From: a virus
Length of the DNA stretch: 43,263 nucleotides
Reading direction: 5' to 3' (one strand)
IMG/VR virus record: IMGVR_UViG_3300045988_018894
Location: 1-43,263 of that record
Positions 120-43,263 of the stretch are shown piece by piece. Position numbers and translations under genes: made by a program. Position 1 is the first letter of the stretch. The number at the start of each line of letters is the position of its first letter. The notes under the pieces were generated by a model. It saw only the letters and a list, made by a program, of their open reading frames with translations, did no database searches and had not been told where the DNA came from.

Positions 120-970
120 CACAGGGCGACGGGCAGAAAACCACGCTCTATGCATTCAAACAGCTTCTGGTGACCGGCAGTAAGATCTTCGGCGTTTCCG
201 TCGGCAACATCGAGCGCGACACTTGGGCGGTGGCGCGAAGCATCGCACAGGAGACCGGCAGTTACTGGGCGATGTATCAGATGGAGCAGATGATTTACCG
301 CGTCGCTCCGGACGCAAAAAACTCATCGCGGTACTACTCGATCCTCTATCACGCATTGCAGGATGACAAGGCCGCGTACGACCGGATTTATGCCGATCTT
401 ATCAGTAAGGGCTATACTGATAAGCAGATCAAGACCGGCATGAAGAACGCCATCAAGAACGCTGGCGGGAGCGATATGCTCTCACAGCTCGAAGACGTTG
501 GATTCAGCCGTGAGGATGCAGAAACCGTTATCAAACAGCAGGAATTCAAGCAGTCCTACGGCTTCTCATACGATGATCTTGCCGATGAATATGCTGACGG
601 GAATATTTCTCGCCGAGAGGTAATTCGGGCGTTGCAGAACGTCGGCGGTCTGTCTGCGGAAGATGCGGAGCTGAAGGCTACGGCGTACGACTGGAAAAAC
701 GCTGGAGTGTCTGATGCGACGAATGCCATCGTCAAGGCGTATCAGAGTTACGGTTCCGATGCAGGATTCGACAAGAAATCCTTTGCGGAGGCGTACAAGG
801 ATCTTAACGCGGTTAAAGGCGAGGATACCGACGGCGACGGGAAGATCGAGAAGAAGGAGTTTGTCCTGCAAGAGATCAACAAAATGAGCATAACCTCTGC
901 ACAAAAGGACGCACTCTATCGGATGATGGGCTACGGAGAGAAACAACTGGCAAAGGCTCCGTGGCATTAA
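2..970 (+). CDS. 3' end of the giant 2,881-aa ORF that starts at 35469 and crosses the circular junction
   Basis: The frame of track ORF 35..970 matches the frame opened at 35469 once position 1 is equated with 43145. The reading frame is open from base 2 and the stop is TAA at 968-970. An EF-hand-type loop DTDGDGKIEKKE is encoded at 824-859. Confidence 0.85.
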   Translation, partial: GRIPFAKDIKSMLQGYTVSRMDADAVSDFIAAAQLFTKATQGDGQKTTLYAFKQLLVTGSKIFGVSVGNIERDTWAVARSIAQETGSYWAMYQMEQMIYRVAPDAKNSSRYYSILYHALQDDKAAYDRIYADLISKGYTDKQIKTGMKNAIKNAGGSDMLSQLEDVGFSREDAETVIKQQEFKQSYGFSYDDLADEYADGNISRREVIRALQNVGGLSAEDAELKATAYDWKNAGVSDATNAIVKAYQSYGSDAGFDKKSFAEAYKDLNAVKGEDTDGDGKIEKKEFVLQEINKMSITSAQKDALYRMMGYGEKQLAKAPWH

Positions 971-24579: not shown

Positions 24580-24917
24580 TTACGGCGCGGCTGGGAGACC
24601 GCGCGGGACTGCTGACGCTGGAGATGGACGGCCATGCCGGCAGCGCTCCGGCGGGGCATGATCTGGTATGCGCGGCGGCAAGCATCCTGTGCTATACGCT
24701 GGCGGCACAGGCGGGCAAGCTAAGCGCAGACGGCAAGCTTCGGGCAAAGCCGCGCGTGGACTTGGCCGACGGGCACGCGTCGATTGCGATCAGGCCGCGC
24801 GGGGCAGCGGAACGCGAGGCGCGGGCAATCTGGGGCACAGTTGAGGCAGGGCTATTGCTCCTGCAAAGGGAGCACCCGGACTGCATCAGAGTTGATAGCG
24901 GGGAGTATCCCCGATAA
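24576..24917 (+). CDS. prp: Prp-family (YsxB/DUF464) cysteine protease (113 aa)
   Basis: GHAG...GHDLVCAAAS catalytic His/Cys context, about 110 aa in size, located between portal and scaffold. Confidence 0.8.
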   Translation: MITARLGDRAGLLTLEMDGHAGSAPAGHDLVCAAASILCYTLAAQAGKLSADGKLRAKPRVDLADGHASIAIRPRGAAEREARAIWGTVEAGLLLLQREHPDCIRVDSGEYPR

Positions 24918-25891: not shown

Positions 25892-26938
25892 ATGACTGAC
25901 CTGAGATACATCAATCTGCAGCTGTTTGCAGATGTGACCAATGCGACGACCTCGGCGGCAACCGGCAACAACCTGTCCGCCGAGATGAAGACCTTTTACG
26001 ACAAGGTGCTGCTGCGCGAAGCTGGCCCGCACCTTGTCCACGATCAGTTTGGACAGAAGCGCGATATTCCGCGCGGCAACGGCAAAACGATCGAGTTCCG
26101 CAAGTTTAACCAGCTGCCCAAGGCGCTGACCGCGCTGACCGAGGGCGTGACCCCCAGCGGCGGCGCACTGGACGTGACGAGCCTGACGGCGACCGTTAAC
26201 CAGTACGGCTATTTTGTCCGCATTACCGACGTGCTTGATCTTACCGCCATCGACAATGTGGCTGTCGAGGCCGCGCAGCTGCTTGGCGATCAGGCGGGCA
26301 TTACGATGGATACCATCGTGCGCAACGTCCTGCAGGGCGGCACCAACGTGCTGTTTTGCCCCAAGGTTGCCTCCGGCGTGGAGACGGCTGTTACCACCCG
26401 CGCCGGGCTGGACAACACGTCCCAGCTGACCGTCAAGGCCATTCAGCGCGCCGTGGCGACGCTGAAGAGCAAAAACGTGCCGACCATCAACGGCAAGTAC
26501 GTCGGTATCATCCACCCGTACGTCGCGTACGATCTGATGCGCGACCCGGAGTGGGTCGACGCGCACAAGTATGCCAATCCTACCAACCTGTACACGGGAG
26601 AGCTGGGCGAGATTGCGGGCGTGCGGTTTGTCGAGTCGACCGAGGCGAAGGTCTGGAAGGATTCCTCCTGCCCCAAGATCGGCAGTACCGACAACCACTA
26701 CGGCGTGTTTGGCACGCTGATCCTTGGCAAAAACGCCTATGGCGTCACCGAGGTCACCGGCGGCGGCCTGCAGACCATCGTCAAGGGCAAGGGCAGCGCC
26801 GGTACGGCTGACCCGCTGGATCAGCGCTCTACCGTCGGCTGGAAGGGTATCCGCACGGCCAAAATCCTGCTCGAGCAGAATATTGTGCGCGTGGAGAGCG
26901 TGTCCGATGCGTGGAGCGCGTCGGTCGAGGCAAACTGA
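25892..26938 (+). CDS. Major capsid protein (348 aa), HK97-fold type, with an N-terminal Prp-type propeptide
   Basis: MTDLRYINLQLFADVTN at the N-terminus. TEGVTPSG and other blocks typical of this capsid family. RBS GGAAGGGAG. Confidence 0.9.
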   Translation: MTDLRYINLQLFADVTNATTSAATGNNLSAEMKTFYDKVLLREAGPHLVHDQFGQKRDIPRGNGKTIEFRKFNQLPKALTALTEGVTPSGGALDVTSLTATVNQYGYFVRITDVLDLTAIDNVAVEAAQLLGDQAGITMDTIVRNVLQGGTNVLFCPKVASGVETAVTTRAGLDNTSQLTVKAIQRAVATLKSKNVPTINGKYVGIIHPYVAYDLMRDPEWVDAHKYANPTNLYTGELGEIAGVRFVESTEAKVWKDSSCPKIGSTDNHYGVFGTLILGKNAYGVTEVTGGGLQTIVKGKGSAGTADPLDQRSTVGWKGIRTAKILLEQNIVRVESVSDAWSASVEAN

Positions 26939-27664: not shown

Positions 27665-29422
27665 ATGTATAATCCGACGCTCACCGAGACGAGCCAGAGC
27701 CGCGAGATGCTGTCCGTGTTTGGAGGGTACAACCACAACCGCAGGATCAGCGACGGCGAGTTTTACGACATGACAAACCTCACGTCGAGCGGGTATCCGC
27801 TCCTGATGAGCAGACCCGCACGCGGCAAGGTGCAGCAGCTGACCGCTCCGGGCGGGATGCTGGCAAAGGACGCGATGGCCGTGGTCGACGGGGGCAAGCT
27901 GTACTACAACGGCAAGGAGATCACCGGGCTGACGCTGAGCGACGGCGACAAGCAGATGGTCAGCATGGGGGCATACCTTGTGATCTGGCCGGACAAGGTG
28001 TATCTCAACACCAAGGACGTGACGGACTGCGGGAGCCTTGAGGCGTCGTGGGAGAGCACCGGCAACGTGGTGTACTCGCTGAGCACAATGGACGGCAAAG
28101 CGATGGGAGATATCCCGCTTACGCAGCCGGAGAATCCGACAGGCGGCGAGTATTGGATCGATACGACGCAGACCCCACACCAGCTGATGACGTACTCCGC
28201 GTCGCAGAGCATGTGGATGGGTATCGCGACGGTCTACACCAAGATCTCGGCAGACGGGATCGGCAAGGCCTTTGCCGAAGGCGACGGGCTGGAGATCAGC
28301 GGCATCGCCTACGGGGGAGACAGCGAGGCCGTCAAGGCGCAGTATGAGGATCTCAACGGCACAAAGGTCGTGCAGAGCAAGGGCGATGACTGGATCGTGG
28401 TCATCGGGCTGATCGACCTGACCTACACGCAGGAGAGCGGCACGGTTAAGGCGGCACGCAGTGTGCCGGACATGGACTATGTCTGCGAGGCGCAAAACCG
28501 CATCTGGGGATGCAAGTACGGCATGGTGGACGGCAAGACCGTCAACGAACTGTACTGCTGCAAGCTCGGCGATTTTAAGAACTGGCGAGTCTATGCCGGC
28601 GTGTCGACGGACGCTTGGGCGGCATCTGTTGGGTCGGACGGCGCGTGGACGGGCGCGATCAACTACCAAGGATATCCTACGTTTTTTAAAGAGGACGTGA
28701 TCCACCGGATTTCCGTCGCATCCTCCGGTGGGCATCAGGTCGTTGAGACGGCGGCGCGAGGCGTGCAAAACGGCAGCTGGCGCAGCCTGTGCGTAGTCAA
28801 CGAGATGCTTCTTTACAAGTCCCGCACGGATGTATGCGCGTACGACGGGAGTTTCCCCACGTCGATTGGGGCGGCGTTTGGCGATGTGCTATACAGCAAG
28901 GCGACTGCGGGGTGCGTGGGCGGCAAGTATTACATCAGCATGTACGATGGCTCGGCATGGCATCTCTTTGTGTACGACGCAACCCGGGCAATGTGGCATC
29001 GGGAGGACAATACACACGCGCTTGTATTCGCACGGATGGACGATGACCTGTTTTACATCGATGCGGACACCAAGTGGATGATGTGCGTCAACGGCACGCA
29101 GGGCACGCCGGAGGACGTTCCCGAGTGGTCTGCGGAGACGGGCGTGATCGGGTACGACTACCCCGACAAAAAATACCTGAGCCGCTATAACATCCGACTC
29201 CAAATTGAGCAGGGCGGGGAGCTGCGGCTATACTGCATGTACGACTCCGACGGCATTTGGCGCGAGGCGGGGACAGTGCGGCGAAAGGGCCATGGGACGT
29301 TCACGGTTCCCGTGATCCCCCGGCGGTGCGACCATATGCGGCTCAAGCTCTCCGGCAAGGGCGTCGTGAGGGTGTTTTCCATCGCGAAAATTCTTGAGCT
29401 GGGGAGTGATCTCGGATGGTAG
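27665..29422 (+). CDS. Virion structural (tail) protein, 585 aa
   Basis: RBS TAAGGAGGG. A large beta-rich protein in the tail module. No specific family recognised. Confidence 0.7.
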   Translation: MYNPTLTETSQSREMLSVFGGYNHNRRISDGEFYDMTNLTSSGYPLLMSRPARGKVQQLTAPGGMLAKDAMAVVDGGKLYYNGKEITGLTLSDGDKQMVSMGAYLVIWPDKVYLNTKDVTDCGSLEASWESTGNVVYSLSTMDGKAMGDIPLTQPENPTGGEYWIDTTQTPHQLMTYSASQSMWMGIATVYTKISADGIGKAFAEGDGLEISGIAYGGDSEAVKAQYEDLNGTKVVQSKGDDWIVVIGLIDLTYTQESGTVKAARSVPDMDYVCEAQNRIWGCKYGMVDGKTVNELYCCKLGDFKNWRVYAGVSTDAWAASVGSDGAWTGAINYQGYPTFFKEDVIHRISVASSGGHQVVETAARGVQNGSWRSLCVVNEMLLYKSRTDVCAYDGSFPTSIGAAFGDVLYSKATAGCVGGKYYISMYDGSAWHLFVYDATRAMWHREDNTHALVFARMDDDLFYIDADTKWMMCVNGTQGTPEDVPEWSAETGVIGYDYPDKKYLSRYNIRLQIEQGGELRLYCMYDSDGIWREAGTVRRKGHGTFTVPVIPRRCDHMRLKLSGKGVVRVFSIAKILELGSDLGW

Positions 29423-30199: not shown

Positions 30200-32032
30200 A
30201 TGGCGCTCTCCGGCAATTTTTCCGGATCGACCGGCAACCAGTATATCAGGCCGGACATCTACTGGTCGGCGGCACAGTCGCAGGACGGCAACTACAGCGA
30301 CGTAACCGCGACGCTGTACTACAGCCGCAGCAACAGCGGCTATACGACGAGCGGCACGTGGTCGGGCGGTATTACGATCGACGGACAGCGCATGGCGGGG
30401 AGCCGTCACATCGAGATCTCCTATAATTCCGACACGATGGCGGTCTCTGCGACGGTGCGGGTGTACCACAATGCGGACGGCAGTCGGGACGTGACGATTT
30501 CGGCAGATGGACGGATCAGCGGCACGACGCTCTCATCGACCTCGATTTCGGCGACGGTGACGCTCGACACGATCCCGCGCGCCAGCGTGCCGACGCTCAA
30601 CAAGAGTTCCATCGCCATGGGCGAGGAGATCATCATCTACACCAACAGCAAAAAGACCGGATTTGTCCACACGGTGCGCTATGCGTTCGCGGGAGACGGC
30701 TACGCGGGGGACTTCGACGGGGAGACGGCGTACAACTGGTTTGCGCTGACCCCGCGCAAGGCGCTTGCAAGCAGGATCCCAAACGCCGCAAGCGGGACGT
30801 GTACGGTTTACCTCAAGACATGGAGCGACAGCAGCCTGACGGAGCAGATCGGCGACGAGCAGAGCGTAAGCTTCACGCTGCGCGTTCCGGCGGATGCGGC
30901 GCCCACGGTGGCCTCCGGCTGGGCAGTGGCGGCGGCAGACAACAGCGGCGGCAAGGCCGCAAGCCTTAAGGGGTTTATCAGCGGATTCTCGCGGGCGCAG
31001 ATCGCATTTGCAGCGGACAAGATATCGACCAAGTACGGGGCAAGCATCGCCGGATACAGGATCACCTGCGGCGGCGTGAGCGCGGAGAGTACGCCGTATA
31101 AGACGGGGGTGCTGTTTGGGGAAAGCGCACAGATCATCTGCCGCGTGACGGATTCGCGCGGGATGTATGCCGAGCAAACGCTGACGGTCAACCTCTACTC
31201 CTACGCCGCTCCGACGCTGACGGGCGTACAGATCTACCGATCGGATGACGCAATGCTCCCGGCGGACACGGGGATGCACATCGCGGGCGTGGCCACGGTC
31301 AAGCACTCCGACTGCGGCGGGGAGAACACCTACACGCTCAAAGGCTATTGGAGAGCCGTGGGAGGCTCATGGAGCGCGGGGCTTGCGATGGCAAGCGGCA
31401 AGGCGGCGCTCGTCACCGGTAGTGTGGACATCCTTACGACGGCCAGCTATGAGGGCAAAATCGATGTAGTCGACAAACTCGGCAACGTCGCCAGCGTAAC
31501 GGCGGTTATCCCGACGCAGGCTGTTACGATGCATATGCGCGAGGGCGGCAACGGAGTGGCCTTTGGCAAGTACAGCGAAAAGGCCGGGCTTGAGTGCGCG
31601 TGGGGCGCGGAATTTCAGGGAGAGGTGCAGGCGGCTTCGCTGCGTGTGGGCGGACGGATGCTGCTCGACTGGATCTATCCGGTAGGAAGCATCTATCAGT
31701 CCACAAAATCGACCGATCCGGCTGATTTATTCGGGGGAACGTGGGAAGCCATTACTAACGTGTTTCTGCTGGCGGCTGGCACAATCTATCGCCCCGGTAC
31801 GACCGGCGGTGAATCCGAGGTAACGCTGACAGCTGACGAAATCCCTGAGATCAAGATGAGCTATCAGTACACTGGCCAGAGCACTGTCATTGGTACGGAC
31901 GCGATCCGGCTGTACGATGCCAACGGACAGCAGAACCAGTACACGGGGCCACAAAGCAGCAACTGCGGGGGCAAGGCGCACAACAACATGCCGCCGTATT
32001 TGGCTGTGTACACATGGAAGCGCACAGCATGA
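30200..32032 (+). CDS. Tail fibre / receptor-binding protein with C-terminal tail-collar-like domain (610 aa)
   Basis: N-terminus resembles DUF859-type phage proteins. The C-terminal segment GGESEVTLTADEIPE...GGKAHNNMPPYLAVYTWKRTA resembles phage tail-collar domains. Confidence 0.7.
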   Translation: MALSGNFSGSTGNQYIRPDIYWSAAQSQDGNYSDVTATLYYSRSNSGYTTSGTWSGGITIDGQRMAGSRHIEISYNSDTMAVSATVRVYHNADGSRDVTISADGRISGTTLSSTSISATVTLDTIPRASVPTLNKSSIAMGEEIIIYTNSKKTGFVHTVRYAFAGDGYAGDFDGETAYNWFALTPRKALASRIPNAASGTCTVYLKTWSDSSLTEQIGDEQSVSFTLRVPADAAPTVASGWAVAAADNSGGKAASLKGFISGFSRAQIAFAADKISTKYGASIAGYRITCGGVSAESTPYKTGVLFGESAQIICRVTDSRGMYAEQTLTVNLYSYAAPTLTGVQIYRSDDAMLPADTGMHIAGVATVKHSDCGGENTYTLKGYWRAVGGSWSAGLAMASGKAALVTGSVDILTTASYEGKIDVVDKLGNVASVTAVIPTQAVTMHMREGGNGVAFGKYSEKAGLECAWGAEFQGEVQAASLRVGGRMLLDWIYPVGSIYQSTKSTDPADLFGGTWEAITNVFLLAAGTIYRPGTTGGESEVTLTADEIPEIKMSYQYTGQSTVIGTDAIRLYDANGQQNQYTGPQSSNCGGKAHNNMPPYLAVYTWKRTA

Positions 32033-32044: not shown

Positions 32045-33088
32045 ATGCCTGATATTAATATCACAGTGGCGCACAAGGTCGCGGTGTCTGATACGCAATC
32101 CATCGTATGCGACAACAGCGACTACACAGTGCATTGGACGCTGGACGAGGAGTGGGCCGCCTACGACACCAAAACCATGCGAACGATCTACATGGACGGC
32201 ACGTTCAAGGATACGGTGTTTAGCGGCGCGGAAGTCAAACTGCCCGTTTGCACCGTGCCGGGAGTGGTGCAGATCGGCTTGTTTGCGGGCGACATCCGCA
32301 CGTCGCGCGTGGCAATCCTGCGCGCGCTGCCGTCCGTCCGGTCTGCGGCTGGCGCGCCTGCCGATCCCACGCCAGATGTGTACGACCAACTCATGGCGCG
32401 CATGGCGCAGTTGGAGACGCCCGACTGGAACCAGAACGACCCGACCGCGAAGGACTATGTGCGGAACAGGACGCATTGGGCTGAAACAGGCGAGGACGTA
32501 GTTGGAACCGGAATGTCCGGTTGGTCTATCACGGCATCAGATCGCCCTGATAGAGTTATCCAGAAAGTACGTATCGGCGGGCAAGTGTATGAGAATGTGC
32601 AACCTTTATCTTACTCGACCGAACTTATAATTGGGTATCAGATCGGGGATTACGAAGTAACATTTTTGAAACAGTATGACCGTGTCAGCATTTCGCCGAG
32701 CACCATATCCCCCGAGGACATTGAGTTTATCGGAGCTAAAACAACCTACCATCAAATTGCTGAGGAATACCTCCCCGGGTATACCGCGCTCAAGACTGAT
32801 GTTGCCGCCGCAAAACACGTTGCAGACCAAGTGGTGGCGTTTTGGTGTAACTACAGGGACTCTGCGTTGATGTTTATGAATATCCCGGATGCTAAGGCTA
32901 TATTTGTGTCCCCGTCAGGCGGTGGCACCAAATTAAGCGCGAAACGATACACGCATGATAATAAAACGTACTATGATATCTTATCTTGCAAAACCGGGAT
33001 AGCGATTACGGATGCCGAAATACCATATGGGACTATGATGCTGTCGATTGTATCAACTGGCAAATGCTATTGCCTTAATCCCCTGTAA
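32045..33088 (+). CDS. Second tail fibre / receptor-binding protein (347 aa) with a compositionally distinct C-terminal half
   Basis: The conserved-looking joint PDWNQNDPTAKDYVRNRTHW is followed by a visibly lower-GC C-terminal region. Confidence 0.65.
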   Translation: MPDINITVAHKVAVSDTQSIVCDNSDYTVHWTLDEEWAAYDTKTMRTIYMDGTFKDTVFSGAEVKLPVCTVPGVVQIGLFAGDIRTSRVAILRALPSVRSAAGAPADPTPDVYDQLMARMAQLETPDWNQNDPTAKDYVRNRTHWAETGEDVVGTGMSGWSITASDRPDRVIQKVRIGGQVYENVQPLSYSTELIIGYQIGDYEVTFLKQYDRVSISPSTISPEDIEFIGAKTTYHQIAEEYLPGYTALKTDVAAAKHVADQVVAFWCNYRDSALMFMNIPDAKAIFVSPSGGGTKLSAKRYTHDNKTYYDILSCKTGIAITDAEIPYGTMMLSIVSTGKCYCLNPL

Positions 33089-33155
33089 CCACACGCCCAA
33101 CGCCCTGACGGGCTTAATTTACACGCGCAATTCGCAGAAGAGAGGAGACGACATT

Positions 33156-33374
33156 ATGACAGAATCCATCATCGCAGCACTGATAACCGGCGCGTTAAGC
33201 CTGTTTGGCGTGCTGGCCAGCAACCGCAAGACACAGGCAGTGACAGAGACCAAGATCGACGAGCTGACGCGCGAGGTGCGCGAGCACAACAATTTTGCGC
33301 GTCGTATGCCGGTCGTGGAGGAGCAGATCAAGGAGATTAACCACCGTATCGCAGATCTTGAAGAGAAACAGTAA
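33156..33374 (+). CDS. Lysis-cassette membrane protein (72 aa; N-terminal TM plus coiled coil)
   Basis: RBS AGAGGAGACG. MTESIIAALITGALSLFGVLASN followed by a charged helix. Confidence 0.55.
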   Translation: MTESIIAALITGALSLFGVLASNRKTQAVTETKIDELTREVREHNNFARRMPVVEEQIKEINHRIADLEEKQ

Positions 33375-33413
33375 TTTTATGGTGCCCTAATCGGGCACAG
33401 GAAGGAGAAAAAT

Positions 33414-33689
33414 ATGGAAAACATCGGTATCGCAAGCGTGGCGGCCATTACGGTCATCGCCTACATCATCGGCGCGCTGGTCAAACTTTGGCCCGCCATC
33501 CCGGACAAGGCTATCCCCGTCATCTGTGGGCTGGTCGGCGCGGGGCTGGGCCTGCTGAGCCTGTACTGCGCGCCCATCCCGGATTTCCCCGCGACGGATC
33601 CGATCACGGCCGCTGCTGTGGGCGTTGTGTCCGGTCTGGCTGCTACGGGTATTAATCAGGCGGTTAAGCAGCTGAGCAAGGAGGAGTAA
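33414..33689 (+). CDS. Holin (91 aa, multi-TM)
   Basis: RBS GGAAGGAG. Two or three hydrophobic spans and a charged C-terminus KQLSKEE. Sits immediately upstream of the endolysin. Confidence 0.75.
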   Translation: MENIGIASVAAITVIAYIIGALVKLWPAIPDKAIPVICGLVGAGLGLLSLYCAPIPDFPATDPITAAAVGVVSGLAATGINQAVKQLSKEE

Positions 33690-33690
33690 G

Positions 33691-34389
33691 ATGAACATCA
33701 TCGAAAAAACCTACAACTGGGCGCACGAACTGTCTGCCCGTCAGGTCACGAACCTGATCATTCTGCACCACGCTGCGGCCAAATCTTGTACGGCAGCGGA
33801 TGTACACAACTGGCATCTTAACCGGGGATGGGCTGGCATCGGCTACCACTTTTTTGTCGGCAAGGACGGCAGCGTCACGCGTGGCCGTCCGCTCTGGGCA
33901 GTCGGCGCGCACGCCGAAAGCTGCAACTGGCGATCTGTCGGCGTGTGTTTCGAGGGCGATTACCAGGCTGAGACGGAGATGCCCGCCGCGCAGCTGCAGG
34001 CCGGGCGTGAGCTGGTGCAGTATCTCAAGGCTAAGCTGGGCGTGGATCGTGTGGTTGGCCACCGCGACGTTGCAGTGGCGGGGACGAGCTGCCCCGGCCA
34101 GTATTTCCCGTTCGATTCGATTTGTGCGACGGACAACGACAACACTAATACCGAGGAGGATATTATCATGGTAGCAACTCAGATGATCGGCAACGGCGAC
34201 CGTGGCAACGCGGTGCGCAGCATGCAGGGTGCGCTCATCGCGCAGGGCTATAAGTGCGGCAGCTACGGCGCGGACGGTATCTGCGGCGCGGCAACCGTCG
34301 CGGCGATTAAGGCTTGCCAGCACGCAAACGGCCTGACGGCGGACGGCATCTGCGGCCCCGATACATGGGGAGCACTGCTCAAGAAGTAA
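33691..34389 (+). CDS. Endolysin: N-acetylmuramoyl-L-alanine amidase (Amidase_2/PGRP) plus PG_binding_1 domain (232 aa)
   Basis: ILHHAA, GWAGIGYHFFV and HRDV...CPG amidase motifs. C-terminal segment GDRGNAVRSMQGALIAQGY...GLTADGICGPDTWGALL. Confidence 0.9.
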   Translation: MNIIEKTYNWAHELSARQVTNLIILHHAAAKSCTAADVHNWHLNRGWAGIGYHFFVGKDGSVTRGRPLWAVGAHAESCNWRSVGVCFEGDYQAETEMPAAQLQAGRELVQYLKAKLGVDRVVGHRDVAVAGTSCPGQYFPFDSICATDNDNTNTEEDIIMVATQMIGNGDRGNAVRSMQGALIAQGYKCGSYGADGICGAATVAAIKACQHANGLTADGICGPDTWGALLKK

Positions 34390-34419: not shown

Positions 34420-35448
34420 GTGGCGTTTAGCTACAAAGACTATGAGGAGAGCGAGCGCGTCAGGGATCTGTACAATCAGCTCCAGCAGACGGACGCACGG
34501 AAGCCGGGCGAGTGGGACGGCGGGACGTATGGCCAGCAGATGCAGGACGCGCTCAGCAAGCTGCAGAACCGCGAAAAATTTAAGTACGACCTGAACGGCG
34601 ACGCGCTCTATCAGCAGTACAAGGATCGATACGTCCAGCAGGGCAAGCAAGCCATGCAGGATACGATGGGACAGGCGGCGGCGCTTACCGGCGGGTATGG
34701 CTCGACATACAGCCAAAGCGCCGGGCAGCAGCAGTATAACGCGTATCTGCAGAGTCTTAACGACGTTGTGCCGGAGCTGTATCAGATGGCGCTGGATCGT
34801 TATAACGCGGAGGGCGACGATCTCAAGACGCAGTACTCCCTCCTTGCGGACAGGTACTCGCAGGAGTACGGAGAGCATCGGGATAAGACGAGCGACTGGC
34901 AAAACCAGCGCGATTACGCCGCGAATCGGTACGATGCCGAGCGGCAGCTTGATTACAGCCGATACGGCGACGCAAAAAGCTACGCCTATCAGGACTACAG
35001 GGATCAGGTCTCAGACGCGCAGTGGCAAAAACAGTATGACGAGAACGTCAGGCAGTTTAACCAGCAGATGGCGATGGAGCAGGCTCAGCTTGCGGCGCAG
35101 AGGGCGGCGGCAAGCAGTTCGAGCCGCAGTGGTTCGTCCAGCTCTCGCAGATCCAGCAAGAGCTACGACACCCACGGGTACTCGTCCGATCAGATCAAGC
35201 AGATCCAGATGGCGGCTGGGCTTACGCAGGACGGCATTTGGGGCGCGCAGACTCAGGCGGCATATGAGAGCGGCTATAGGCCGATCAACGAGTATACCAT
35301 CACAAATCGATCCGGTAACGGATGGATCAAGCTTGAGGGCGGAAGCCGATACGGTGAAACTGAGCTGATTAAGATGCTCCAGAACGGAACTGCGACCGCA
35401 ACGTGGGACAACAGCAAGAAGACAATCACGTTTCACAAGAAGAAGTAA
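34420..35448 (+). CDS. Q/Y/D-rich protein with a PG_binding_1-like segment (342 aa, GTG start)
   Basis: SD GGAGG 9 nt upstream. IKQIQMAAGLTQDGIWGAQTQAAY resembles a peptidoglycan-binding repeat. Contains a Ser-rich linker. Confidence 0.65.
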   Translation: MAFSYKDYEESERVRDLYNQLQQTDARKPGEWDGGTYGQQMQDALSKLQNREKFKYDLNGDALYQQYKDRYVQQGKQAMQDTMGQAAALTGGYGSTYSQSAGQQQYNAYLQSLNDVVPELYQMALDRYNAEGDDLKTQYSLLADRYSQEYGEHRDKTSDWQNQRDYAANRYDAERQLDYSRYGDAKSYAYQDYRDQVSDAQWQKQYDENVRQFNQQMAMEQAQLAAQRAAASSSSRSGSSSSRRSSKSYDTHGYSSDQIKQIQMAAGLTQDGIWGAQTQAAYESGYRPINEYTITNRSGNGWIKLEGGSRYGETELIKMLQNGTATATWDNSKKTITFHKKK

Positions 35449-35468: not shown

Positions 35469-38400
35469 ATGACCAACAACGATCTGGCGGTGGAGCTGCT
35501 GCAGCAGCGTAAGAAGAAGCGCGAGGATCCGCAGTCTGCGGCGACGCAAACCAGCACGCAGAATATGAGCGGACAGGCCGCTCTTGCGCAGGAGCTTTTG
35601 TCTCAGCGGATTCAGGCGCGGAAAGAGCGCGAAGCGACGCAGCCCACCGTCAGCCTTCCCTCGCAGAGAATTGACCCGGCGAAGGAGCGGCAGGAGAGCA
35701 AGGGCAAGTTTAACGGCTGGAAGTATTTCGGCAACCTCGGAAAGACGCTACTGACCGGCGTTGCAAGCCTTGCACAGACGGGAGCCATGGCCGAGGATGT
35801 TGTGACTTCTGCCGTGGATACGATCTTCAAGGGTGCGAACACAAAGGGAAGTGGCCTCTTCAATGCACTGTATCACGGCCGACCGGATTGGAAGTTCCTC
35901 GGCGAGAATGGCCTCGTCGGCATCGAGCAGGAGAAAGCCTATCTCGATCAGGAACGAGAGGCTGAAGTCGCCAAAATCAAGGATGACACTTTTGGCGGCA
36001 AGGTCTCCAAAAAGGCTGCGTCGTATGGCGGCGATATCGCGTATGGCGTAGGCGGCGCGATCCCCATGGCGGCGACTGCGGGAGTTGCGGCGGCACCTAT
36101 CGTCAACGGCGTAGCGACATCAACGGAGGCGCTTGCAAATCTGGGCGCGTCCGTCGTGGAAAGTTCCGGTGTGCTGAATGCTCTGGGGAAAGGGTTTCGC
36201 GACACGCTAAGATCCAAGGACTACTGGATGGCATTTACATCCGAGGTCGGCGCGGATTACCAGGAAGCCCTTTCTGATGGCGCAAGCACGGGCGAAGCCA
36301 TGAACTACGCCATCGCCACCAGCCTTCTTAACTCTATAATCGAAGTCGGCGGTGGTATCCAGAAGGTACCGGAGAACTTCAGCGTAAAGAATCTCCTGCG
36401 CAGCGCCGCAGAGGAGGGCATGGAGGAAATCTGGCAAGGCCCCGTCGGGCGCACAATGCAGAACGTTGTGTACGGCGCAGACAATCCCATCGGGTCGCTT
36501 TCGGATGACCGCGCGATCTTTAACCCCGTGACATCCGCACAGGAGTTTGCGGGAGGGTTTGCCGTCGGCGGCATTCTTTCCGGCGCACAGATGGCGGCGG
36601 GGAAAGCCGCAGGCAGCGTCTATAACAAGCAGATCGAGAAGCAGAGCAAGCGCTATGAGCAGGCGCAGCAGATGGTAAGAGACCGCTCCGGCGTAAAGGG
36701 TACGTATCAAACACAGGAGGACGGGAAAACCACGGTCGGCGGCAGTGAGTCTGCGATCAAGTCCGTCGTAAAGGACGGGCAGATCGAGATGGAGAACGGC
36801 GAGGTTGTTTCCCCTGAGAAGGTAACGTTCGCGGATCGGAACACTGCGGATCTCTATGAGGGCGCGATCAACCGCGCGGCAAACGCCGGAGCGGCGAATG
36901 TTTTTATCGATTCTTATGCTGGCGGCGACGTGAGCCGTTATCTGCTTGGGATGCAGGAGGCGTATGAGGATGGCCGCGCCGGTGTCGTAACCGAGAAACG
37001 CGGGACGTTTGCGGACGATCTGACGGACGCGCAGCGCACCGCTGCGTGGAATCAGGGCGCGGCGGACGGGCTTCAGAGCTTCCGCTCCGACACCGGACTC
37101 GGTGAAAACGGCAGCGCCGCGTGGACGCAGGTGCAGCAGAATCAGGCCGTGAGGAGCAACCCGCGCCTCCGCACGGGCTTTACCTCGATGTATCAGGCGG
37201 GGCTGAGCGGGAAAGCGCTGACCGACGTGAAGAGCGACGCGGCAAAGTATATCCCCCCATCCGTACAGACGGCGGCATATCAGGCGGGGCTTGCGGACGC
37301 GGCGAGCAGCCTTGCGCGGGAAAAGGCCGGGGTAAAACTGGTTACGCGCTCCGATGAGTCGGGGCTTGCTGACAACGATTACAGCCGGAATCTTGCCAAC
37401 AAAGACGCCGGAACGGCACGCGTACTGGGGGCTTTGGCAAGCGACATGGGCGTAAGGATTGAGATCGTCCCACAGGTACAGGGCGGCGCGGCGAACGGCA
37501 AGTACGTCAATAAAACAAACACGATCCAGCTTGCGGCAGACGCGGATAACCCGCTCGCCTTTGTCGCGGCGCATGAGGTGACGCACCGGATGCAGGATGC
37601 CGCGCCCACGGAATACCACGCGTATCGCGACGCGGTGATGGCATACCGCGCGAACGAGCTGGGGGATGATACGGCGGCGCATATGGTAGAGCGCTACCGC
37701 GACGCAAGCCGCGAGGCTGGCGTGACGCTGACGCAGGAAGAGGCCATGGACGAGATCGCGGCGGACTTTACCGCGAAGATGATCGACGACGCTAACCTCT
37801 TTGAGAGGTTCGCCAGACAGAACCGCACGGAGGCAAAGACCCTACTCGACCGCTTGAAGGAATTTATCTCCAAGGTCAAGAACCTTGTCGCATCCAAGCG
37901 CAACAAAGCCGCGCAGGAGGCTTACGGCAAAAACTTCGCGGAGCTGCAGAAGATCGCAGCCCTTTGGCAGACGGCGTATGACAAGGCGGCAGAGACGGTC
38001 GGACACGCAGTTTTGGTTACAAATGATGCTCCGACTGCTGGAGTGTCTTACGATGATGCCGTTTACTCATTGCGTGTTACAGACGAGGCGCTTAAAAACG
38101 GTGATGTTGCCAGTATCCCGCCCAGCATTTCCCCAAAGTCTACGCCAGTTCGTTCTACTGAGATTCTAACAGACAGCGCGGTGGTGACCGCTGATGACGG
38201 GGAGCGCTACTCGCTGAAGTCGATGAAGCGTGACATCGCCGAAGGGCAGATGTTTAAAGACCTGAAGTCCTACTGCAACTGGACGCAAGCGCAGGTCGAC
38301 GAGCTGAAAACGAACATCGAGGAGCTTGTCCGATACATGGAGCCGCACCGCGACATCCTCGACATGAACGAGACCACCGGACGAGATGACCGGCGTTTTT

Positions 38401-41400
38401 CCCCTTATAAGCAGAACAGCGACCCTCTCTACAAGATTTCAATGGACTTTTCGACGCTTTGCAGTAAGCGGCTGTTGACCCAGTACGTCATCGAGAGCCT
38501 GCAGGTGCGCGAGGGACGGCCAATGTCTGCTGAGGAGCAGATGGCCATACGCGATATGTTGATTGAGTACCGCAAAGTAGACAAGGGACTTCAGGTCGCG
38601 TGCGCGATGTGTTACGTTGAGGCGGCGCGGCTTAAATCCCCCAAGCAGATGCAGACGTGGCTGGACGATCGCGGCAGGGCGATGCGAAAGTATTACGCAG
38701 CGAAGAACCAAGCGTATGAGGACAGCATTATAAAGGCTCAGGAGGATTTTAAGGAGTCGAGAGGGTACGACAGAGACACCCCCAAGAGCAAGATGAAGCA
38801 CTCGGACGTTACCGAACTGAACAAGATCCGGCCCCGCATGGCCTCGGAGTATCAGCCGACGGATTCGGAACAGCGAGTTATTGATCAGGTCGAAAGTCTC
38901 CCCACAGAGACGTTTTTGACGAGCGCAAATCTTGCGCAATTCAGCGAGGATTTGCCGGACGGATATGCGGCCTACATCGGGATGATGACAAAGGCGACGC
39001 ACAGCAAGCCTCTTGAGACGGATGAGGCATATTATTACGGGGACAGCCGCCGCAAAATCGGGCATGGCAAGGTCGTGACGGATCGGTTCCTCGCGAACAT
39101 GAACCGAGAGAATGGCATGCGGTTCTCCTCGTGGAGCGATTGGCGCATCCAGCACTTACTGGACTATATCACAGCGGTGATCGACAATAGCGTGCGCGGG
39201 GCGAAGATGCACGGGTACACAAAATATCCGGACGAGGTACGCGTGCTCGGCAAGACTGGCATGATGTTTAACCTCTCTGGCGTGGCCGGTACGCAGACGG
39301 GCCTGAACCCCGACGGCAGCCTGAGCTTCAGCGACACCGAGAGCATCAACATTGAGGAGGCAAAGGCACTGCGTGAGGAGTTCCCAGATACGGCGGGGCT
39401 GCAGTGCATCGGCGTGAGCGACAAGCATATCCGGGCGCTGATGCGCAGCGAAGATGTCGATTATATCATCCCCTATCACACCAGCAGCCTGAACAAAGAT
39501 CTGCGGCGCATGGCGCAGATCCACGGGTGGAAAGATTACACGCTCACCCAGAACGAGAAAAAACTCAAGGGAGCAACAAGCGACGGAAGCGAGACATGGC
39601 AAGTCACACCGGCGTTTTCGGACTGGTTCGTCGGGTACGACACCGGCATGAGCGGCATCGAGGCCATGCGGGCAAGCGCTGCGCGGTATTTGGAGATCTG
39701 CAAGGAGCGCGGATTGCGCCCGAAGTTTGAGGCGTTTACAGACGAGCCAAACTACTGGAAACTCCTGATCGACCGAAAGATGATCAATCAGGAGACCGGC
39801 AAACTGATCCGGCAGAAGCCGGTTACGCCGGAGTTTGACTTTGATACAATCCGTGGGATCGTTGACCGGTATGTCGAGGATTATGACAGCTCTCGCGAGG
39901 AGAGGGCGCTCAAGTATGTAACGGACAACTGGGACACCATCCCCCAGCGAATCAAATATCTGAAGGCCACGGAAGCGCAGAAGAAGGCCATGGCGACCCT
40001 TGGGAATGAGATGATTGCGGCTCAGCCGAAGGAGAACAGGCTCCAGCTCAAGTCTCAGACGCAGATCGAGTCGGAAATGCGCGACATCAAGAAGGAACGC
40101 GATCGGCTCAAAGCGCGCGTGAAATCGCTTGAGCGTCAGGTGGCACGCTGGAAAGCGGAAACCAAGCCTTCTATGCCGAGTTTCCGCGAGGGAGATCTGA
40201 AGAAACTCTGCAATCGGCTTATCAACGACTTCGACAGTTCGACGAAATACAGCGAGATCAAGACGGACATGGAGAACCTCGGCAAGGCGCTGCTATCGCA
40301 GGATGTCCCTGACACAGAGCTCCACGCTTATGCAGAGTATGTGGCAGAAAAGATCATCCAGAATTCCCGTGTGCTTGAGGAGGGCGGCGAGGACTTGCTG
40401 GAGATCCAAAAACACCTCAAGTCCGTCAAGCTGGCGTACACGGATGACGGATCCATCCCGGATTTTTCCGAATGGAAGAAGGCACACCGTGACATTAAGT
40501 TTGCAAAGGACGGGGGCCTCCCTGTTGACGTGGCATATCACGAGCTGACAGAGCTGTTTGGCGGTGGCTATTTCCCGGAGAACATCGTGCATCCGGCGGA
40601 TCAGCTTACGCGCATGGGCGAGGTGCTGGAGGATATCGACAACATTTGGTCAAATCCTTATGATGAGTACCGCGACATTGCGGTGACGGCACTTGGCAAT
40701 GCGCTGATTGAGGGCATGATCAGCGACGATGTCCGGCAGACAAGACCTACCTACGCAGACCGGAAGGAGCAGGAGATCGCACACCTGAAGGATCTGCTCA
40801 GCAAGACGCGGGCTAGTCGCGACGAGAAGATCAAGCAGATGCGCACAGCTTATGCCGAGCGAACGAAGGCCGGAGCGGAAAGGCGAAAGGCCAGAGAGAT
40901 CCGAGCCAAGATCTCGCGGCACACCGAAACGCTCTCTCGGAAGTTGCTCCGCCCAACGGATAAGCAACACATCCCGGATAGCCTGCGGATGCCCGTTGCC
41001 GCACTCTTGCGTAGCATCAATATGGAGAGCGCCAGAAGCTACGACGAAAACGGCAGGCTGCGGAGCGGGAACAATGGGACACCCACCAAGCGCACGCAGG
41101 ATGCGATCAGACTACGTGAGGCATACGATTCGATCCTCTCCAATGATCCGAACTTTGTTATCGATCCGGCTTTGTTTGGCGGTGACGGGACGAGCGGGTT
41201 TATCGACCAACTTGTCGAGCTGGGGAATCGGCGTATCGACAAGATGGGAACTGCTCAGCTGAATGTTATCTGGAAGGCCATCAAGGGCATTGAGACGACC
41301 ATTACAAGCTACGACAAGGCTCTTTCGAGTGGGAAGTATATGTTTATCTCCCAGTGGGCAAATGATCTCAGGAGCGGCGTAAGTAGCCGCAAACGGGCGA

Positions 41401-43263
41401 ACAAGAAGGCTGCGCTCAGCCTTTACGATCCGCGCACATTTTTCAACGCATATGGTGATGCTGGTCTGGACGTGTTCCGCGCTCTGCGGAATGCGGAGGA
41501 CACGCAGAACCGCAGGGTCGCAGAGGTCGCGAAGCTGACGGAGAAGTTTATGAGCCGCGAGGTCTATAAACAGCGGAACGAGCGGCACACGTTTATGACC
41601 GAGGCCGGACAGACGATCACTCTGACAAATGACCAGATCATGAACCTTTACAACCTCGCGAATCGCGGGAAGCACTCGATGCAGCACCTCTCTGTCGGCG
41701 GCGTTATACAGCCCTACATCAAGCGCGACGGCAAGTTGCCGGCCATTGAGCGTGGCACGAAGAGCATTCCTCTCACTGCAAGCGATGTGGCTCAGATCAC
41801 TGATGCCCTGACGGATGAGCAGATCAAGGTCGCAAAGGGACTGCAGAAAATCGCGTCTACCATGCTTGCCAAGTGGGGCAACGAGGCCAGCATGGCCGTG
41901 TATGGGTACAACAAGTTTACCGAGGAGCATTATTGGCCGATCAAGTCGGCGCGAGAGGCAATTGTGCAGAACGCTGAACGCGGCGAAAATATGCCGCGCG
42001 AGATCCGCAACATGGGCAGTGCAAAAGCCCTGAACGAGAACGCCAGCAACACGCTGGATCTTGGCGGAGTGTTTGACGTTTTCACGAAAAACGCAAGCGA
42101 CATGATTACCTACAGCACAATGCTCGAACCGATGGAGGACATCAACCGTCTTTTTAACTATCGCTACCGCGACTCTGCCGGGAACCTTACCGGCAAGAAC
42201 GTCAAGAATGTGCTGACGGATGTTTACGGCGAACAGGCGCTGAAGTACTGGCGAAACCTCATGAGTGACGTGCAGAACGGCATCGCCCACGATGATGAGC
42301 CGATCACGCGCATGATCGAGAAGCTTGTCGGCAGGACGAAGGCCGCAAGCGTCGGCATGAACGCCCGCGTGGTGCTCCAGCAGCCCACGGCATTCTTTCG
42401 TGCGGCGGCGATCATCGATCCCAGCGACATGGCCAAGGGGCTTGTCAAGGCTCCTACCAAGGGCAATGGCTGGAAGAAGGCCAAACAGTATGCGGGCATT
42501 GCCGCCATCAAGGACTCGTCCGGATTCGATCAGGCCGGTCAGTACACGATCATGAAGGGCATTCTCAACGGCGCGGATCAGACCTTTATGGAGAAGCTCA
42601 GCGATGCATCCGGCGCGGCGGCGGCAAAGGCAGACGCTGTGACGTGGGGCAAGATTTGGAACGCGTGTGAGTATACCGTGCAGAAGGAAGGGCGCTATGA
42701 AGTCGGGAGCGAGGAGTTTTACACGCGCACGGCAGAGGTGTTTTCCGACGTAATCGACCAGTCGCAGGTCGTCGACGGGATTCTCCAGCGCACGCAGATC
42801 ATGCGCAGCGGGAACGGCCTGACGAAACAGGCCACCGCATTTATGGGCGAACCGATGAAGTCCCTGAATATGCTCCTAAGGGCCTATGACGCGTGGCGTT
42901 ATGAAACCAATCCCAGCAAGAAGAGCGCGGCTCTGAAACAGTTTGTCCGGACGAGCATCGCGTTGCTGGTTACCGACGGCGTAAACGCGCTTGTCCAGTC
43001 CCTCGTCGACGCGGCGCGGAAGGATGACAAGGACAAGGATTACTGGGGCAGATACTTCGAGGTTCTGACCGGCGTAACCGGAGAGGACGACACGGTCGTC
43101 AGCGTCCTGCTGGGCAGTAACCTGTGGGACAACATCGACCCCGTAGGACGGATTCCGTTCGCCAAGGACATCAAGTCCATGCTTCAGGGCTACACGGTGT
43201 CCCGCATGGATGCAGACGCGGTTTCGGACTTTATTGCTGCGGCGCAGCTGTTTACAAAGGCCA
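35469..43263 (+). CDS. 5' part (2,598 codons) of the giant 2,881-aa ORF; open to the window end and continues at 2..970
   Basis: ATG 7 nt after GGGAGG. I translated the whole frame by hand and found no stop. The ORF track shows no other plus-strand ORF in this frame. The frame was verified at 37572, 39471 and 42231. Contains HEVTH at 37572-37586. Confidence 0.85.
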   Translation, partial: MTNNDLAVELLQQRKKKREDPQSAATQTSTQNMSGQAALAQELLSQRIQARKEREATQPTVSLPSQRIDPAKERQESKGKFNGWKYFGNLGKTLLTGVASLAQTGAMAEDVVTSAVDTIFKGANTKGSGLFNALYHGRPDWKFLGENGLVGIEQEKAYLDQEREAEVAKIKDDTFGGKVSKKAASYGGDIAYGVGGAIPMAATAGVAAAPIVNGVATSTEALANLGASVVESSGVLNALGKGFRDTLRSKDYWMAFTSEVGADYQEALSDGASTGEAMNYAIATSLLNSIIEVGGGIQKVPENFSVKNLLRSAAEEGMEEIWQGPVGRTMQNVVYGADNPIGSLSDDRAIFNPVTSAQEFAGGFAVGGILSGAQMAAGKAAGSVYNKQIEKQSKRYEQAQQMVRDRSGVKGTYQTQEDGKTTVGGSESAIKSVVKDGQIEMENGEVVSPEKVTFADRNTADLYEGAINRAANAGAANVFIDSYAGGDVSRYLLGMQEAYEDGRAGVVTEKRGTFADDLTDAQRTAAWNQGAADGLQSFRSDTGLGENGSAAWTQVQQNQAVRSNPRLRTGFTSMYQAGLSGKALTDVKSDAAKYIPPSVQTAAYQAGLADAASSLAREKAGVKLVTRSDESGLADNDYSRNLANKDAGTARVLGALASDMGVRIEIVPQVQGGAANGKYVNKTNTIQLAADADNPLAFVAAHEVTHRMQDAAPTEYHAYRDAVMAYRANELGDDTAAHMVERYRDASREAGVTLTQEEAMDEIAADFTAKMIDDANLFERFARQNRTEAKTLLDRLKEFISKVKNLVASKRNKAAQEAYGKNFAELQKIAALWQTAYDKAAETVGHAVLVTNDAPTAGVSYDDAVYSLRVTDEALKNGDVASIPPSISPKSTPVRSTEILTDSAVVTADDGERYSLKSMKRDIAEGQMFKDLKSYCNWTQAQVDELKTNIEELVRYMEPHRDILDMNETTGRDDRRFSPYKQNSDPLYKISMDFSTLCSKRLLTQYVIESLQVREGRPMSAEEQMAIRDMLIEYRKVDKGLQVACAMCYVEAARLKSPKQMQTWLDDRGRAMRKYYAAKNQAYEDSIIKAQEDFKESRGYDRDTPKSKMKHSDVTELNKIRPRMASEYQPTDSEQRVIDQVESLPTETFLTSANLAQFSEDLPDGYAAYIGMMTKATHSKPLETDEAYYYGDSRRKIGHGKVVTDRFLANMNRENGMRFSSWSDWRIQHLLDYITAVIDNSVRGAKMHGYTKYPDEVRVLGKTGMMFNLSGVAGTQTGLNPDGSLSFSDTESINIEEAKALREEFPDTAGLQCIGVSDKHIRALMRSEDVDYIIPYHTSSLNKDLRRMAQIHGWKDYTLTQNEKKLKGATSDGSETWQVTPAFSDWFVGYDTGMSGIEAMRASAARYLEICKERGLRPKFEAFTDEPNYWKLLIDRKMINQETGKLIRQKPVTPEFDFDTIRGIVDRYVEDYDSSREERALKYVTDNWDTIPQRIKYLKATEAQKKAMATLGNEMIAAQPKENRLQLKSQTQIESEMRDIKKERDRLKARVKSLERQVARWKAETKPSMPSFREGDLKKLCNRLINDFDSSTKYSEIKTDMENLGKALLSQDVPDTELHAYAEYVAEKIIQNSRVLEEGGEDLLEIQKHLKSVKLAYTDDGSIPDFSEWKKAHRDIKFAKDGGLPVDVAYHELTELFGGGYFPENIVHPADQLTRMGEVLEDIDNIWSNPYDEYRDIAVTALGNALIEGMISDDVRQTRPTYADRKEQEIAHLKDLLSKTRASRDEKIKQMRTAYAERTKAGAERRKAREIRAKISRHTETLSRKLLRPTDKQHIPDSLRMPVAALLRSINMESARSYDENGRLRSGNNGTPTKRTQDAIRLREAYDSILSNDPNFVIDPALFGGDGTSGFIDQLVELGNRRIDKMGTAQLNVIWKAIKGIETTITSYDKALSSGKYMFISQWANDLRSGVSSRKRANKKAALSLYDPRTFFNAYGDAGLDVFRALRNAEDTQNRRVAEVAKLTEKFMSREVYKQRNERHTFMTEAGQTITLTNDQIMNLYNLANRGKHSMQHLSVGGVIQPYIKRDGKLPAIERGTKSIPLTASDVAQITDALTDEQIKVAKGLQKIASTMLAKWGNEASMAVYGYNKFTEEHYWPIKSAREAIVQNAERGENMPREIRNMGSAKALNENASNTLDLGGVFDVFTKNASDMITYSTMLEPMEDINRLFNYRYRDSAGNLTGKNVKNVLTDVYGEQALKYWRNLMSDVQNGIAHDDEPITRMIEKLVGRTKAASVGMNARVVLQQPTAFFRAAAIIDPSDMAKGLVKAPTKGNGWKKAKQYAGIAAIKDSSGFDQAGQYTIMKGILNGADQTFMEKLSDASGAAAAKADAVTWGKIWNACEYTVQKEGRYEVGSEEFYTRTAEVFSDVIDQSQVVDGILQRTQIMRSGNGLTKQATAFMGEPMKSLNMLLRAYDAWRYETNPSKKSAALKQFVRTSIALLVTDGVNALVQSLVDAARKDDKDKDYWGRYFEVLTGVTGEDDTVVSVLLGSNLWDNIDPVGRIPFAKDIKSMLQGYTVSRMDADAVSDFIAAAQLFTKA
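43145..43263. repeat. Terminal overlap, copy 2 (identical to 1-119)
   Basis: Same 119-nt string as the window start. It lies inside the giant ORF, so it is more likely an assembly overlap than a biological terminal repeat. Confidence 0.95.

Follow-up and report, generated by a model that had tools for sequence, protein, structure and literature searches.

Polyvalent proteins, predicted in 2017 to be the first weapons delivered by a phage or plasmid, still offer few experimental handles. They are giant multi-domain proteins with a virion-gene context and a zincin peptidase as hub domain; they are predicted to be delivered together with the DNA and cut into units, a step that prediction assigns to their built-in metallopeptidases (PMC5512222). 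Their orthologues have already been described as mosaics (Helicobacter jhp1044, ~50 combinations), and zincin-like metallopeptidase domains are present in the N4 virion RNA polymerase (vRNAP) and in DdrB (PMC5512222). One polyvalent protein, gp47 of phi24B (2,811 amino acids, aa), has been found in virions by proteomics and is proposed to be an ejection protein (10.64898/2026.04.10.717836). Here, a giant gene of the virus record IMGVR_UViG_3300045988_018894 (IMG/VR; the whole stretch of 43,263 nt is called the window) is compared with these systems. Its sequence suggests that the product is a phage polyvalent protein, a further member of an already-known class; particular to this lineage are variation in one internal slot, a start motif shared by the modules, and scaffolds and a module that lie outside the catalogued domains.

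The first 119 bases of the window are identical to its last 119 (1-119 repeat 43145-43263), giving a circular unit of 43,144 bp. An open reading frame (ORF) starts at the ATG at 35469, reaches the window end without a stop, and continues in frame across the junction to a stop codon: 8,646 nt, 2,881 codons, 20.0% of the unit. A sequence-only reading had already proposed this closure and this ORF, and both were recovered upon re-circularisation and re-translation; as it had also remarked, the ORF is missing from the ORF track, which shows just a 311-aa piece (35-970) because the lister omits ORFs that run off an end. The GGGAGG Shine-Dalgarno sequence that it had pointed out lies 5 nt 5' of the ATG, and the closest in-frame upstream stop is at 35370. 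Is this a single gene? Among 5.8 billion proteins searched for homologues, the same product was recovered as six variants (96-100% identical, 2,881-2,887 aa) from at least 15 independent contigs that come from different samples and assemblers. The gene calls behind the variants are independent (JGI, ENA, Logan, NCBI nr); one variant is DAG37854.1, 'MAG TPA: hypothetical protein [Caudoviricetes sp.]'. Relative to sister phages, the ratio of nonsynonymous to synonymous substitution rates (dN/dS) is 0.10-0.13 in each of the three parts (N-terminal, middle and C-terminal). The ORF is thus one real gene under purifying selection, not an assembly fusion, and it carries a lesson for annotation: a gene that spans the junction of a circular contig can conceal 20% of a genome.

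The reading favored here, with a probability of about 0.6, is that this is a late gene of a temperate, short-tailed gut-Firmicute phage with a P22-type portal, and that its product is a polyvalent protein, packed in the capsid and ejected, in which an effector slot is held between two scaffolds. The sequence-only reading had suggested a multi-domain ejected or anti-defence protein, with 'polyvalent' proteins among the precedents; class membership can now be argued from orthologous alleles and domain co-occurrence, the protein itself having no catalogued match. Polyvalent proteins combine at least two unrelated conflict-type domains, and two candidates are present here, a zincin-like domain and an unnamed ~610-aa module; orthologues add ART-PolyVal, PBECR5, MuF_C and a second HExxH module. 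In twelve divergent giants the ~610-aa module occurs together with six polyvalent-specific Pfam families: ART-PolyVal (5), LPD38 (3), PBECR5 (2), MuF_C, LPD3 and PBECR3. The context is that of a virion gene: the late operon ends with it, and it lies between tail genes in distant relatives.

The slot is delimited by comparison with close relatives. About 75 of the 120 best homologues have scaffolds that are 86-98% identical to those of the window protein over aa 1-844 (or 1-877) and 1524-2881 by BLASTP, whereas their middles, 213-993 aa long and falling into 22 cassette clusters, are unrelated. The same breakpoints appear in DNA: two sister phages that share the window's 43-kb gene order can be aligned by BLASTN (87-97% identity) as far as nt 38000 and from 40044 onward, with nothing between. 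Modules in the sister slots include the Pfam domains ART-PolyVal, PBECR5 (a BECR-fold RNase) and MuF_C, a second HExxH module and several unnamed ones, and the alleles that carry ART-PolyVal, PBECR5 or MuF_C have scaffolds 92-98% identical to those of the window. The DNA 3' of the giant gene is homologous whichever cassette is present; a cassette-linked immunity gene was sought there, and none co-varies. These alignments suggest that recombination lets closely related phages swap between one and five effector modules in the slot. Near-identical 43-kb gut phages that differ mainly in one slot of one protein amount to a natural experiment: through allele swaps, what a module does can be tried against the defence repertoires of hosts.

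What marks the edges of a module? Every slot module, and the C scaffold too, opens with [FYL][SQ][LIVM][RK], and in 59 of 66 distinct junctions an Arg or Lys stands at position -1. Over the 11 residues before the motif G/S/P/N/D/T are enriched (51% vs 34% overall), an identical upstream linker precedes different modules, and the motif is far denser in slots than in scaffolds (4.9 vs 0.33 per 1,000 aa). When 110 proteins are cut in silico at the motif, they fall into discrete modules that are reused in 32 orders, such as M1-M2, M1-M3, M4-M3, M5-M1-M2 and M1-M7-M3-M3. The window protein has the strict motif only three times: FSVK at aa 304, probably by chance, and YSLR and YSLK at the beginning of the slot. 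The C scaffold opens with a Leu-first form. Linkers before YSLR and before RLQLKS are predicted with pLDDT (predicted local distance difference test) below 50. The YSLR segment starts like M5, and an extra module of the homologue P0008 starts like M1 for ~8 residues; some recombination breakpoints therefore seem to lie just behind the motif. No mention of this start motif was found in PMC5512222, in which 'linker' has 0 occurrences. The motif is a concrete, mutable candidate for the recombinational assembly, and perhaps the cutting, of such proteins. Separately, the 68-codon linker that opens the slot (aa 845-912, 38001-38204), which includes the truncated M5 start and a Pro/Ser-rich stretch, has a third-position GC content (GC3) of 0.44, lower than the 0.72-0.75 elsewhere in the gene, and is possibly a scar left by recombination.

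The window's own slot is filled mainly by the ~610-aa module. The sequence-only reading had singled out a Cys-containing central region, and rightly so: all six Cys of the slot fall inside the module, four of them invariant in 134/134 homologues. Over the 134 representatives, conservation reaches at least 95% at 72 positions, many of which are charged or polar, and conserved motifs include DFSTLC-KR, AC-xx-CYVE, SWSD, DY-IPYH and YWK-L-D-KM (the last two read DYIIPYH and NYWKLLIDRKM in the window). Yet the module has no match in Pfam, PHROGs, NCBIfam, PADLOC, PDB sequences, GenBank phages or, by tblastn, plasmids. With the module alone as query, a word-index protein search found only eight short proteins and none of the giants; HMMER, run exhaustively against 1.84 billion cluster representatives (clusters at 50% identity), found 2,012 relatives, 543 of them with an expect value (E) below 1e-30, nearly all within proteins of 2,000-4,800 aa. 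The context of two short module-bearing proteins (P0165, P0274) was not informative. Synonymous divergence (dS) is 1.39 in the module vs 0.23-0.35 in the flanks, at a dN/dS of 0.109, which points to a separate history of the module; a foreign composition was considered and rejected, as GC3 is 0.75, like that of the scaffolds.

The AlphaFold model of the module is confident (pLDDT 84.5; predicted template modelling score, pTM, 0.81) and consists of a helical N-terminal part followed by alternating strands and helices. Foldseek finds no significant neighbour in PDB (best E 0.36) and one uncharacterised phage homologue in BFVD (E 3e-17). The weak end of the PDB list is made up mostly of triosephosphate isomerase (TIM)-barrel proteins, with some radical S-adenosylmethionine (radical-SAM) enzymes; neither identity was accepted from hits at E >0.3. 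Radical SAM was set aside also because the Cys spacing, C998...C1045-xx-C1048...C1411, is unlike CxxxCxxC, and radical-SAM structures appear only at E >1 with template modelling scores of at most 0.31. From the conserved residues and the model we infer a barrel-like, metal-dependent (Zn or Fe-S) enzyme that occupies the slot filled in sisters by an ADP-ribosyltransferase or an RNase. Large, strongly conserved, structurally confident and present in ~2,000 clusters, the module is a good target for enzyme discovery.

The second candidate enzyme sits in the N scaffold. The zincin-type HExxH noted from sequence is HEVTH, aa 702-706 (37572-37586), and a Glu, E762, follows in MDEIAAD (37752-37754); H702, E703, H706, Y716 and E762 are invariant in alignments down to 21% identity. 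Gluzincins combine HExxH with a downstream Glu ligand, and here H702/E703/H706 and E762 lie on predicted helices. The AlphaFold2 model (pLDDT 73) has a helix, three strands, the HExxH helix and a later Glu-bearing helix (H88-101, E104-108, E118-121, E126-130, H136-152 and H197-214 in model numbering); the same order of elements is described for the metallopeptidases of polyvalent proteins (PMC5512222). Invariant residues and predicted topology make a gluzincin-type peptidase at aa ~645-775 probable.

The surrounding genome is that of a temperate, apparently short-tailed phage with a P22-type portal. A short tail, proposed already by the sequence-only reading, finds support in the portal (PF16510), the phrog_511 and phrog_372 products and the lack of any match to tail tube, sheath, chaperone or tape-measure families among the late ORFs, an absence that counts as negative evidence only. 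That the phage is temperate is shown by a serine recombinase gene and a helix-turn-helix gene on the minus strand and by an integrated copy with host flank. The flanking genes are of Firmicute type (ClpP, HAD hydrolase, RelA_SpoT, MGDG synthase, DegV), and the host is probably a gut Firmicute. In a scan of GTDB genomes the only relatives were four distant ones, from metagenome-assembled genomes of Clostridia, Ruminococcaceae and Faecalibacterium, with C parts 24-41% identical; two of the four have the giant gene between the gene for the phrog_372 tail protein and tail-fibre or endolysin genes, and in one of these two (L004 3397-4581) an ORF with a peptidoglycan-binding region precedes it. A 342-aa ORF with a weak match to PG_binding_1 stands directly 5' of the giant gene in every case; it may encode a partner for passage across the cell wall. 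The giant gene is on the strand of the late operon and starts 20 nt 3' of the preceding late ORF. No promoter-like or terminator-like site was found between it and the 342-aa ORF, and a strong terminator (9-bp stem, 1307-1328) follows it: the transcription signals fit a late operon.

How might such a protein work? By analogy with phi24B gp47, N4 vRNAP and the P1 Dar proteins, it would be packed in the capsid and ejected with the DNA. The scaffolds would serve packaging, envelope passage or both; the slot modules would target host macromolecules or defences soon after entry into the infected cell; cutting at the junction motif, to free the modules, would fall to the built-in zincin or, with lower likelihood, to the Prp that the phage encodes; and the ~610-aa module would be a metal-dependent (Zn/Fe-S) enzyme that replaces the ADP-ribosyltransferase or RNase of the sisters. 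The canonical Prp cleavage site was searched for in the giant protein, and none was found. Taken in its fullest form, the slot would be a programmable polyprotein in which [KR]|[FY][SQ][LIV][KR] is cut by the zincin after ejection, so that any module placed behind the motif is released; the ~610-aa Cys4 module would found a new family of barrel-like metal/Fe-S enzymes with no solved relative, injected as an alternative to ADP-ribosyltransferases and RNases and among the commonest unnamed domains of giant phage proteins. This conjunction is speculative and, as a whole, rather unlikely.

Several points weigh against the polyvalent, ejected-effector reading. The window protein itself has no catalogued polyvalent domain: Pfam gives nothing at E <0.01, and NCBIfam, PADLOC and PDB (sequence searches with the single protein and with two profiles) nothing significant. 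Packaging and ejection are argued from context and analogy, and cleavage at the junctions from sequence. Foldseek finds no significant match for the HExxH region (the best zincins are PprI at E 0.9 and anthrax lethal factor at E 2.8), and Pfam no peptidase match. The motif count, 333 observed vs 27±5 after shuffling, comes from related sequences and overstates independence; among divergent giants, whose modules open with a looser [FY]-S-x-[RK], enrichment is weak (1.3-fold for [FY]S.[RK], 2.5-fold with a leading K/R), and the motif was dropped as a general rule for all giant relatives. A role as a hook for recombination, or as a structure that caps the modules, would account for the motif just as well. 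Finally, the gene lies 3' of the lysis genes and beside the att/int end, a location typical of accessory (moron) genes.

Could the scaffolds, strongly conserved and 76% of the protein, be the main part rather than the carrier? The protein might be a structural ejection or conduit protein, whose scaffolds form a channel, or extend the tail, through the wall and membrane of the Gram-positive cell and whose modules are secondary cargo. This account is unlikely, albeit the strongest of the alternatives; it overlaps the preferred one and differs only in emphasis. T7 gp14-16 are known ejection or conduit proteins. The lack of tape-measure and tube genes, the Gly/Ala-rich hydrophobic segment with a second hydrophobic helix, and the neighbouring ORF with a peptidoglycan-binding domain would all suit a conduit, as would the proposal of an ejection/conduit role for phi24B gp47 (10.64898/2026.04.10.717836). 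However, there is no similarity to any known ejection protein, the hydrophobic segments are weak, and intense diversification is limited to enzyme modules (ADP-ribosyltransferase, RNase), which points to effector delivery as the selected trait.

It is less probable still that the gene is a moron expressed from the prophage, encoding a lysogen toxin, defence or exclusion protein rather than a virion component. Its place at the prophage end, between lysis genes and att/int, and the toxin-type domains of sister alleles (ADP-ribosyltransferase, BECR RNase) would fit, and hosts may turn some polyvalent proteins to defensive use (PMC5512222). But the strand, the 20-nt spacing and the lack of an intervening promoter- or terminator-like site tie the gene to the late operon; PADLOC gives no match; distant relatives have the gene within the tail module, before the endolysin; and a constitutively expressed gene of 8.6 kb would be an unusual moron. 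Improbable, and more so than the moron, is a polymorphic toxin that is released at lysis or borne by the particle and kills competitor bacteria, on the model of the MuF toxins described in temperate phages (PMC5576092): swappable toxin-type modules stand behind a demarcating motif, but a MuF (Phage_Mu_F) domain is lacking, the variable part is internal instead of C-terminal, and no small immunity ORF is linked to the cassettes, the downstream genes being the same for different ones. An assembly or frameshift artefact joining several genes, which the extreme length and the location across the contig junction might suggest, is practically discounted by an exact 119-bp overlap that closes the circle in frame, an ORF intact in at least 15 contigs from varied samples and assemblers at up to 4% amino-acid divergence, a dN/dS of ~0.11 throughout, and a family in which giants of 2,500-4,800 aa are the rule.

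Neither of the scaffolds that flank the effector slot of the putative polyvalent protein matches a catalogued domain. When the full protein is searched against Pfam, PHROGs, NCBIfam and PADLOC, the sole match is PHROG 22978 (function not assigned), to aa 1762-2714 of the C scaffold, a largely helical region of ~1,350 aa that makes up 47% of the protein. Against GenBank phages megablast returned nothing and tblastn only two unannotated human-faecal fragments. Some divergent giants have another C-terminal type, with LPD38; hhalign with the family profile gives it a probability of 0.3%, so a relation to the C scaffold is not demonstrable. Smaller elements that the sequence-only reading had listed fared differently. 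The Gly/Ala-rich hydrophobic segment near residue 200 is present, only moderately hydrophobic, and possibly a membrane-active element; a hydrophobic helix (aa 2495-2517) lies in the C scaffold. The charged coiled-coil stretches are visible as charged helices at aa ~1535-1565 and ~1778-1821, also in the C scaffold. The C-terminal EF-hand is a lesser case: a DxDxDG loop does exist, but it is marginal, with a sub-threshold Pfam E of 0.04, Gln and not Glu at position 12 in most relatives, the pattern kept in 22/120, and no second hand. Table 1 collects the coordinates.

Table 1. Parts of the giant gene and its late-region neighbours in the window; the late region is given in gene order.
Feature	Position	Strand	Basis or remark
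Giant ORF, first part	35469..43263	+	aa 1-2598 and first base of codon 2599; product identical to database protein P0001
Giant ORF, continuation after closure	120..970	+	Stop codon 968-970
N scaffold, aa 1-844	35469..38000	+	BLASTP/BLASTN breakpoints; dN/dS 0.10-0.12; no Cys; 25% Gly+Ala
Gly/Ala-rich, moderately hydrophobic segment, aa 190-219	36036..36125	+	Kyte-Doolittle maximum 1.63
Zincin-like (gluzincin-type) metallopeptidase core (probable), aa ~645-775	37401..37793	+	Invariant residues; AlphaFold2 topology
Variable effector slot, aa 845-1525	38001..40043	+	DNA homology to sisters ends at 38000, resumes at 40044
Junction motif YSLR, aa 866-869	38064..38075	+	Opens 48-aa remnant; first 11 residues match M5 of sister alleles, then diverge
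Unnamed ~610-aa enzyme-like module, aa 913-1523	38205..40037	+	AlphaFold2 model; conservation; dN/dS 0.109
Junction motif (R)YSLK, aa 914-917	38208..38219	+	Start of large module
Invariant Cys of the module	C998 (38460-38462), C1045 (38601-38603), C1048 (38610-38612), C1411 (39699-39701)		
Junction motif RLQLKS, from aa 1524	40038..40055	+	Opens C scaffold; Leu-first form; RFQLKS in most alleles
C scaffold, aa 1526-2881	40044..43263, continues 120-970	+	BLASTP/BLASTN breakpoints
EF-hand-like DxDxDG loop DTDGDGKIEKKE, aa 2834-2845	824..859	+	Fits DxDxDGxIxxxE; marginal
TerL	21189-22691	+	
P22-type portal	22681-24579	+	PF16510, E 6e-34
Prp cysteine protease	24576-24917	+	PF04327, E 1.9e-12; directly 3' of portal gene
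Probable scaffold protein, 296 aa	24981-25871	+	
Major capsid protein	25892-26938	+	
phrog_511 'internal virion protein'	27665-29422	+	
phrog_372 tail protein	30200-32032	+	
Amidase endolysin	33691-34389	+	
342-aa ORF always directly 5' of giant gene	34420..35448	+	Weak PG_binding_1 match, E 0.0013

The two genes that follow Prp encode proteins with a canonical Prp/L27 cleavage motif near the start, MDIMARPLTLQLF'AEGG in the 296-aa probable scaffold protein and MTDLRYINLQLF'ADVT in the major capsid protein; both match the Prp site MLxx(D/N)LQ(F/L)F'A(S/H)KK, and Staphylococcus phage 80alpha employs the host Prp for the same step (PMC9405229). At the other end of the late region, the integrated copy (L011 21765-22044) shows the prophage end right behind the DUF7841 gene, with host genes after it; attP is therefore expected at 3511-3587, in the gap that separates the DUF7841 gene (3026-3511) from the serine recombinase gene (3587-4903, minus strand). 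Two small plus-strand ORFs after the giant gene are conserved in sister phages regardless of slot content: 1087-1308, with a weak GerE/LuxR helix-turn-helix match (E 0.001), and 2628-3029 (133 aa), whose C1q-like domain BclA_C stays under the Pfam cut-off and which may encode a fibre tip. In L001, a 44,806-bp contig of this phage with an identical giant protein, an IS110-family transposase gene (DEDD_Tnp_IS110/Transposase_20, 128-1303) lies just 5' of the 342-aa ORF; the window does not have this transposase gene.

Two further regions vary among these phages. Between sisters that are 87-97% identical, DNA homology is lost a second time at ~32399-33690 (a 347-aa ORF at 32045-33088 and the small ORFs that follow), a tail-fibre/receptor-binding area where sisters (L006, L007, L011) have CBM_5_12, Y_phosphatase3 or collagen-repeat genes. 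The early region of the window contains a DNA methylase gene (PF00145; 9959-11815, minus strand) and a PAPS_reduct-family gene (9013-9915, minus strand). The methylases of sisters differ: one has an SNF2-related/N6_N4_Mtase fusion and another PF00145 with Lar_restr_allev (L006 23373-25871; L007 24789-26354), and anti-restriction content thus varies between these phages too.

How, then, does this locus compare with the described systems? Rhs and CdiA polymorphic toxins have demarcation motifs, PxxxxDPxGL and VENN. With these and the MuF toxins the window protein has in common a conserved part for delivery, enzymatic modules that can be exchanged and, at the boundary, a short conserved motif; unlike them, it has an internal variable part, can hold several modules in series and has no linked immunity gene, and its vehicle would presumably be the virion. 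N4 vRNAP, P1 DarB/DdrB and the T4 internal proteins are large proteins delivered with the DNA that act before phage genes are expressed, as is supposed here; no sequence or domain similarity connects them to the window protein, in which no polymerase, helicase or methylase domain is found. Among the precedents first named for this ORF the polyvalent class has held, whereas N4 vRNAP, T7 gp16 and P1 DarB, which have no detectable homology to it, are analogues and not relatives.

The closest experimental analogue is gp47 of phi24B (vb_24B_48, 2,807-2,811 aa), a Stx-converting podovirus: this too is giant and polyvalent, comes from a phage that is temperate and has a short tail, is encoded by the last late gene and contains an HExxH region. 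It has been detected in virions, and the ejection proposed for it is what is supposed for the window protein. The two differ in that gp47 contains LPD5, LPD1, LPD38 and MuF_C, none of which the window protein has, and its host is Gram-negative. An hhalign comparison covers only the HExxH stretch, at a probability of 1.9%, so homology is not demonstrable. As a class, the polyvalent proteins of Iyer 2017 (PMC5512222) offer the best match: they are giant and multi-domain, have a virion-gene context and combine a zincin-like peptidase with effector domains, and the orthologues of the window protein share with them ART-PolyVal, PBECR5 and MuF_C as well as mosaic architectures. Of the 131 domains in their catalogue, in the form in which Pfam represents them, the window protein matches none, and its lineage limits variation to one internal slot between two fixed scaffolds.

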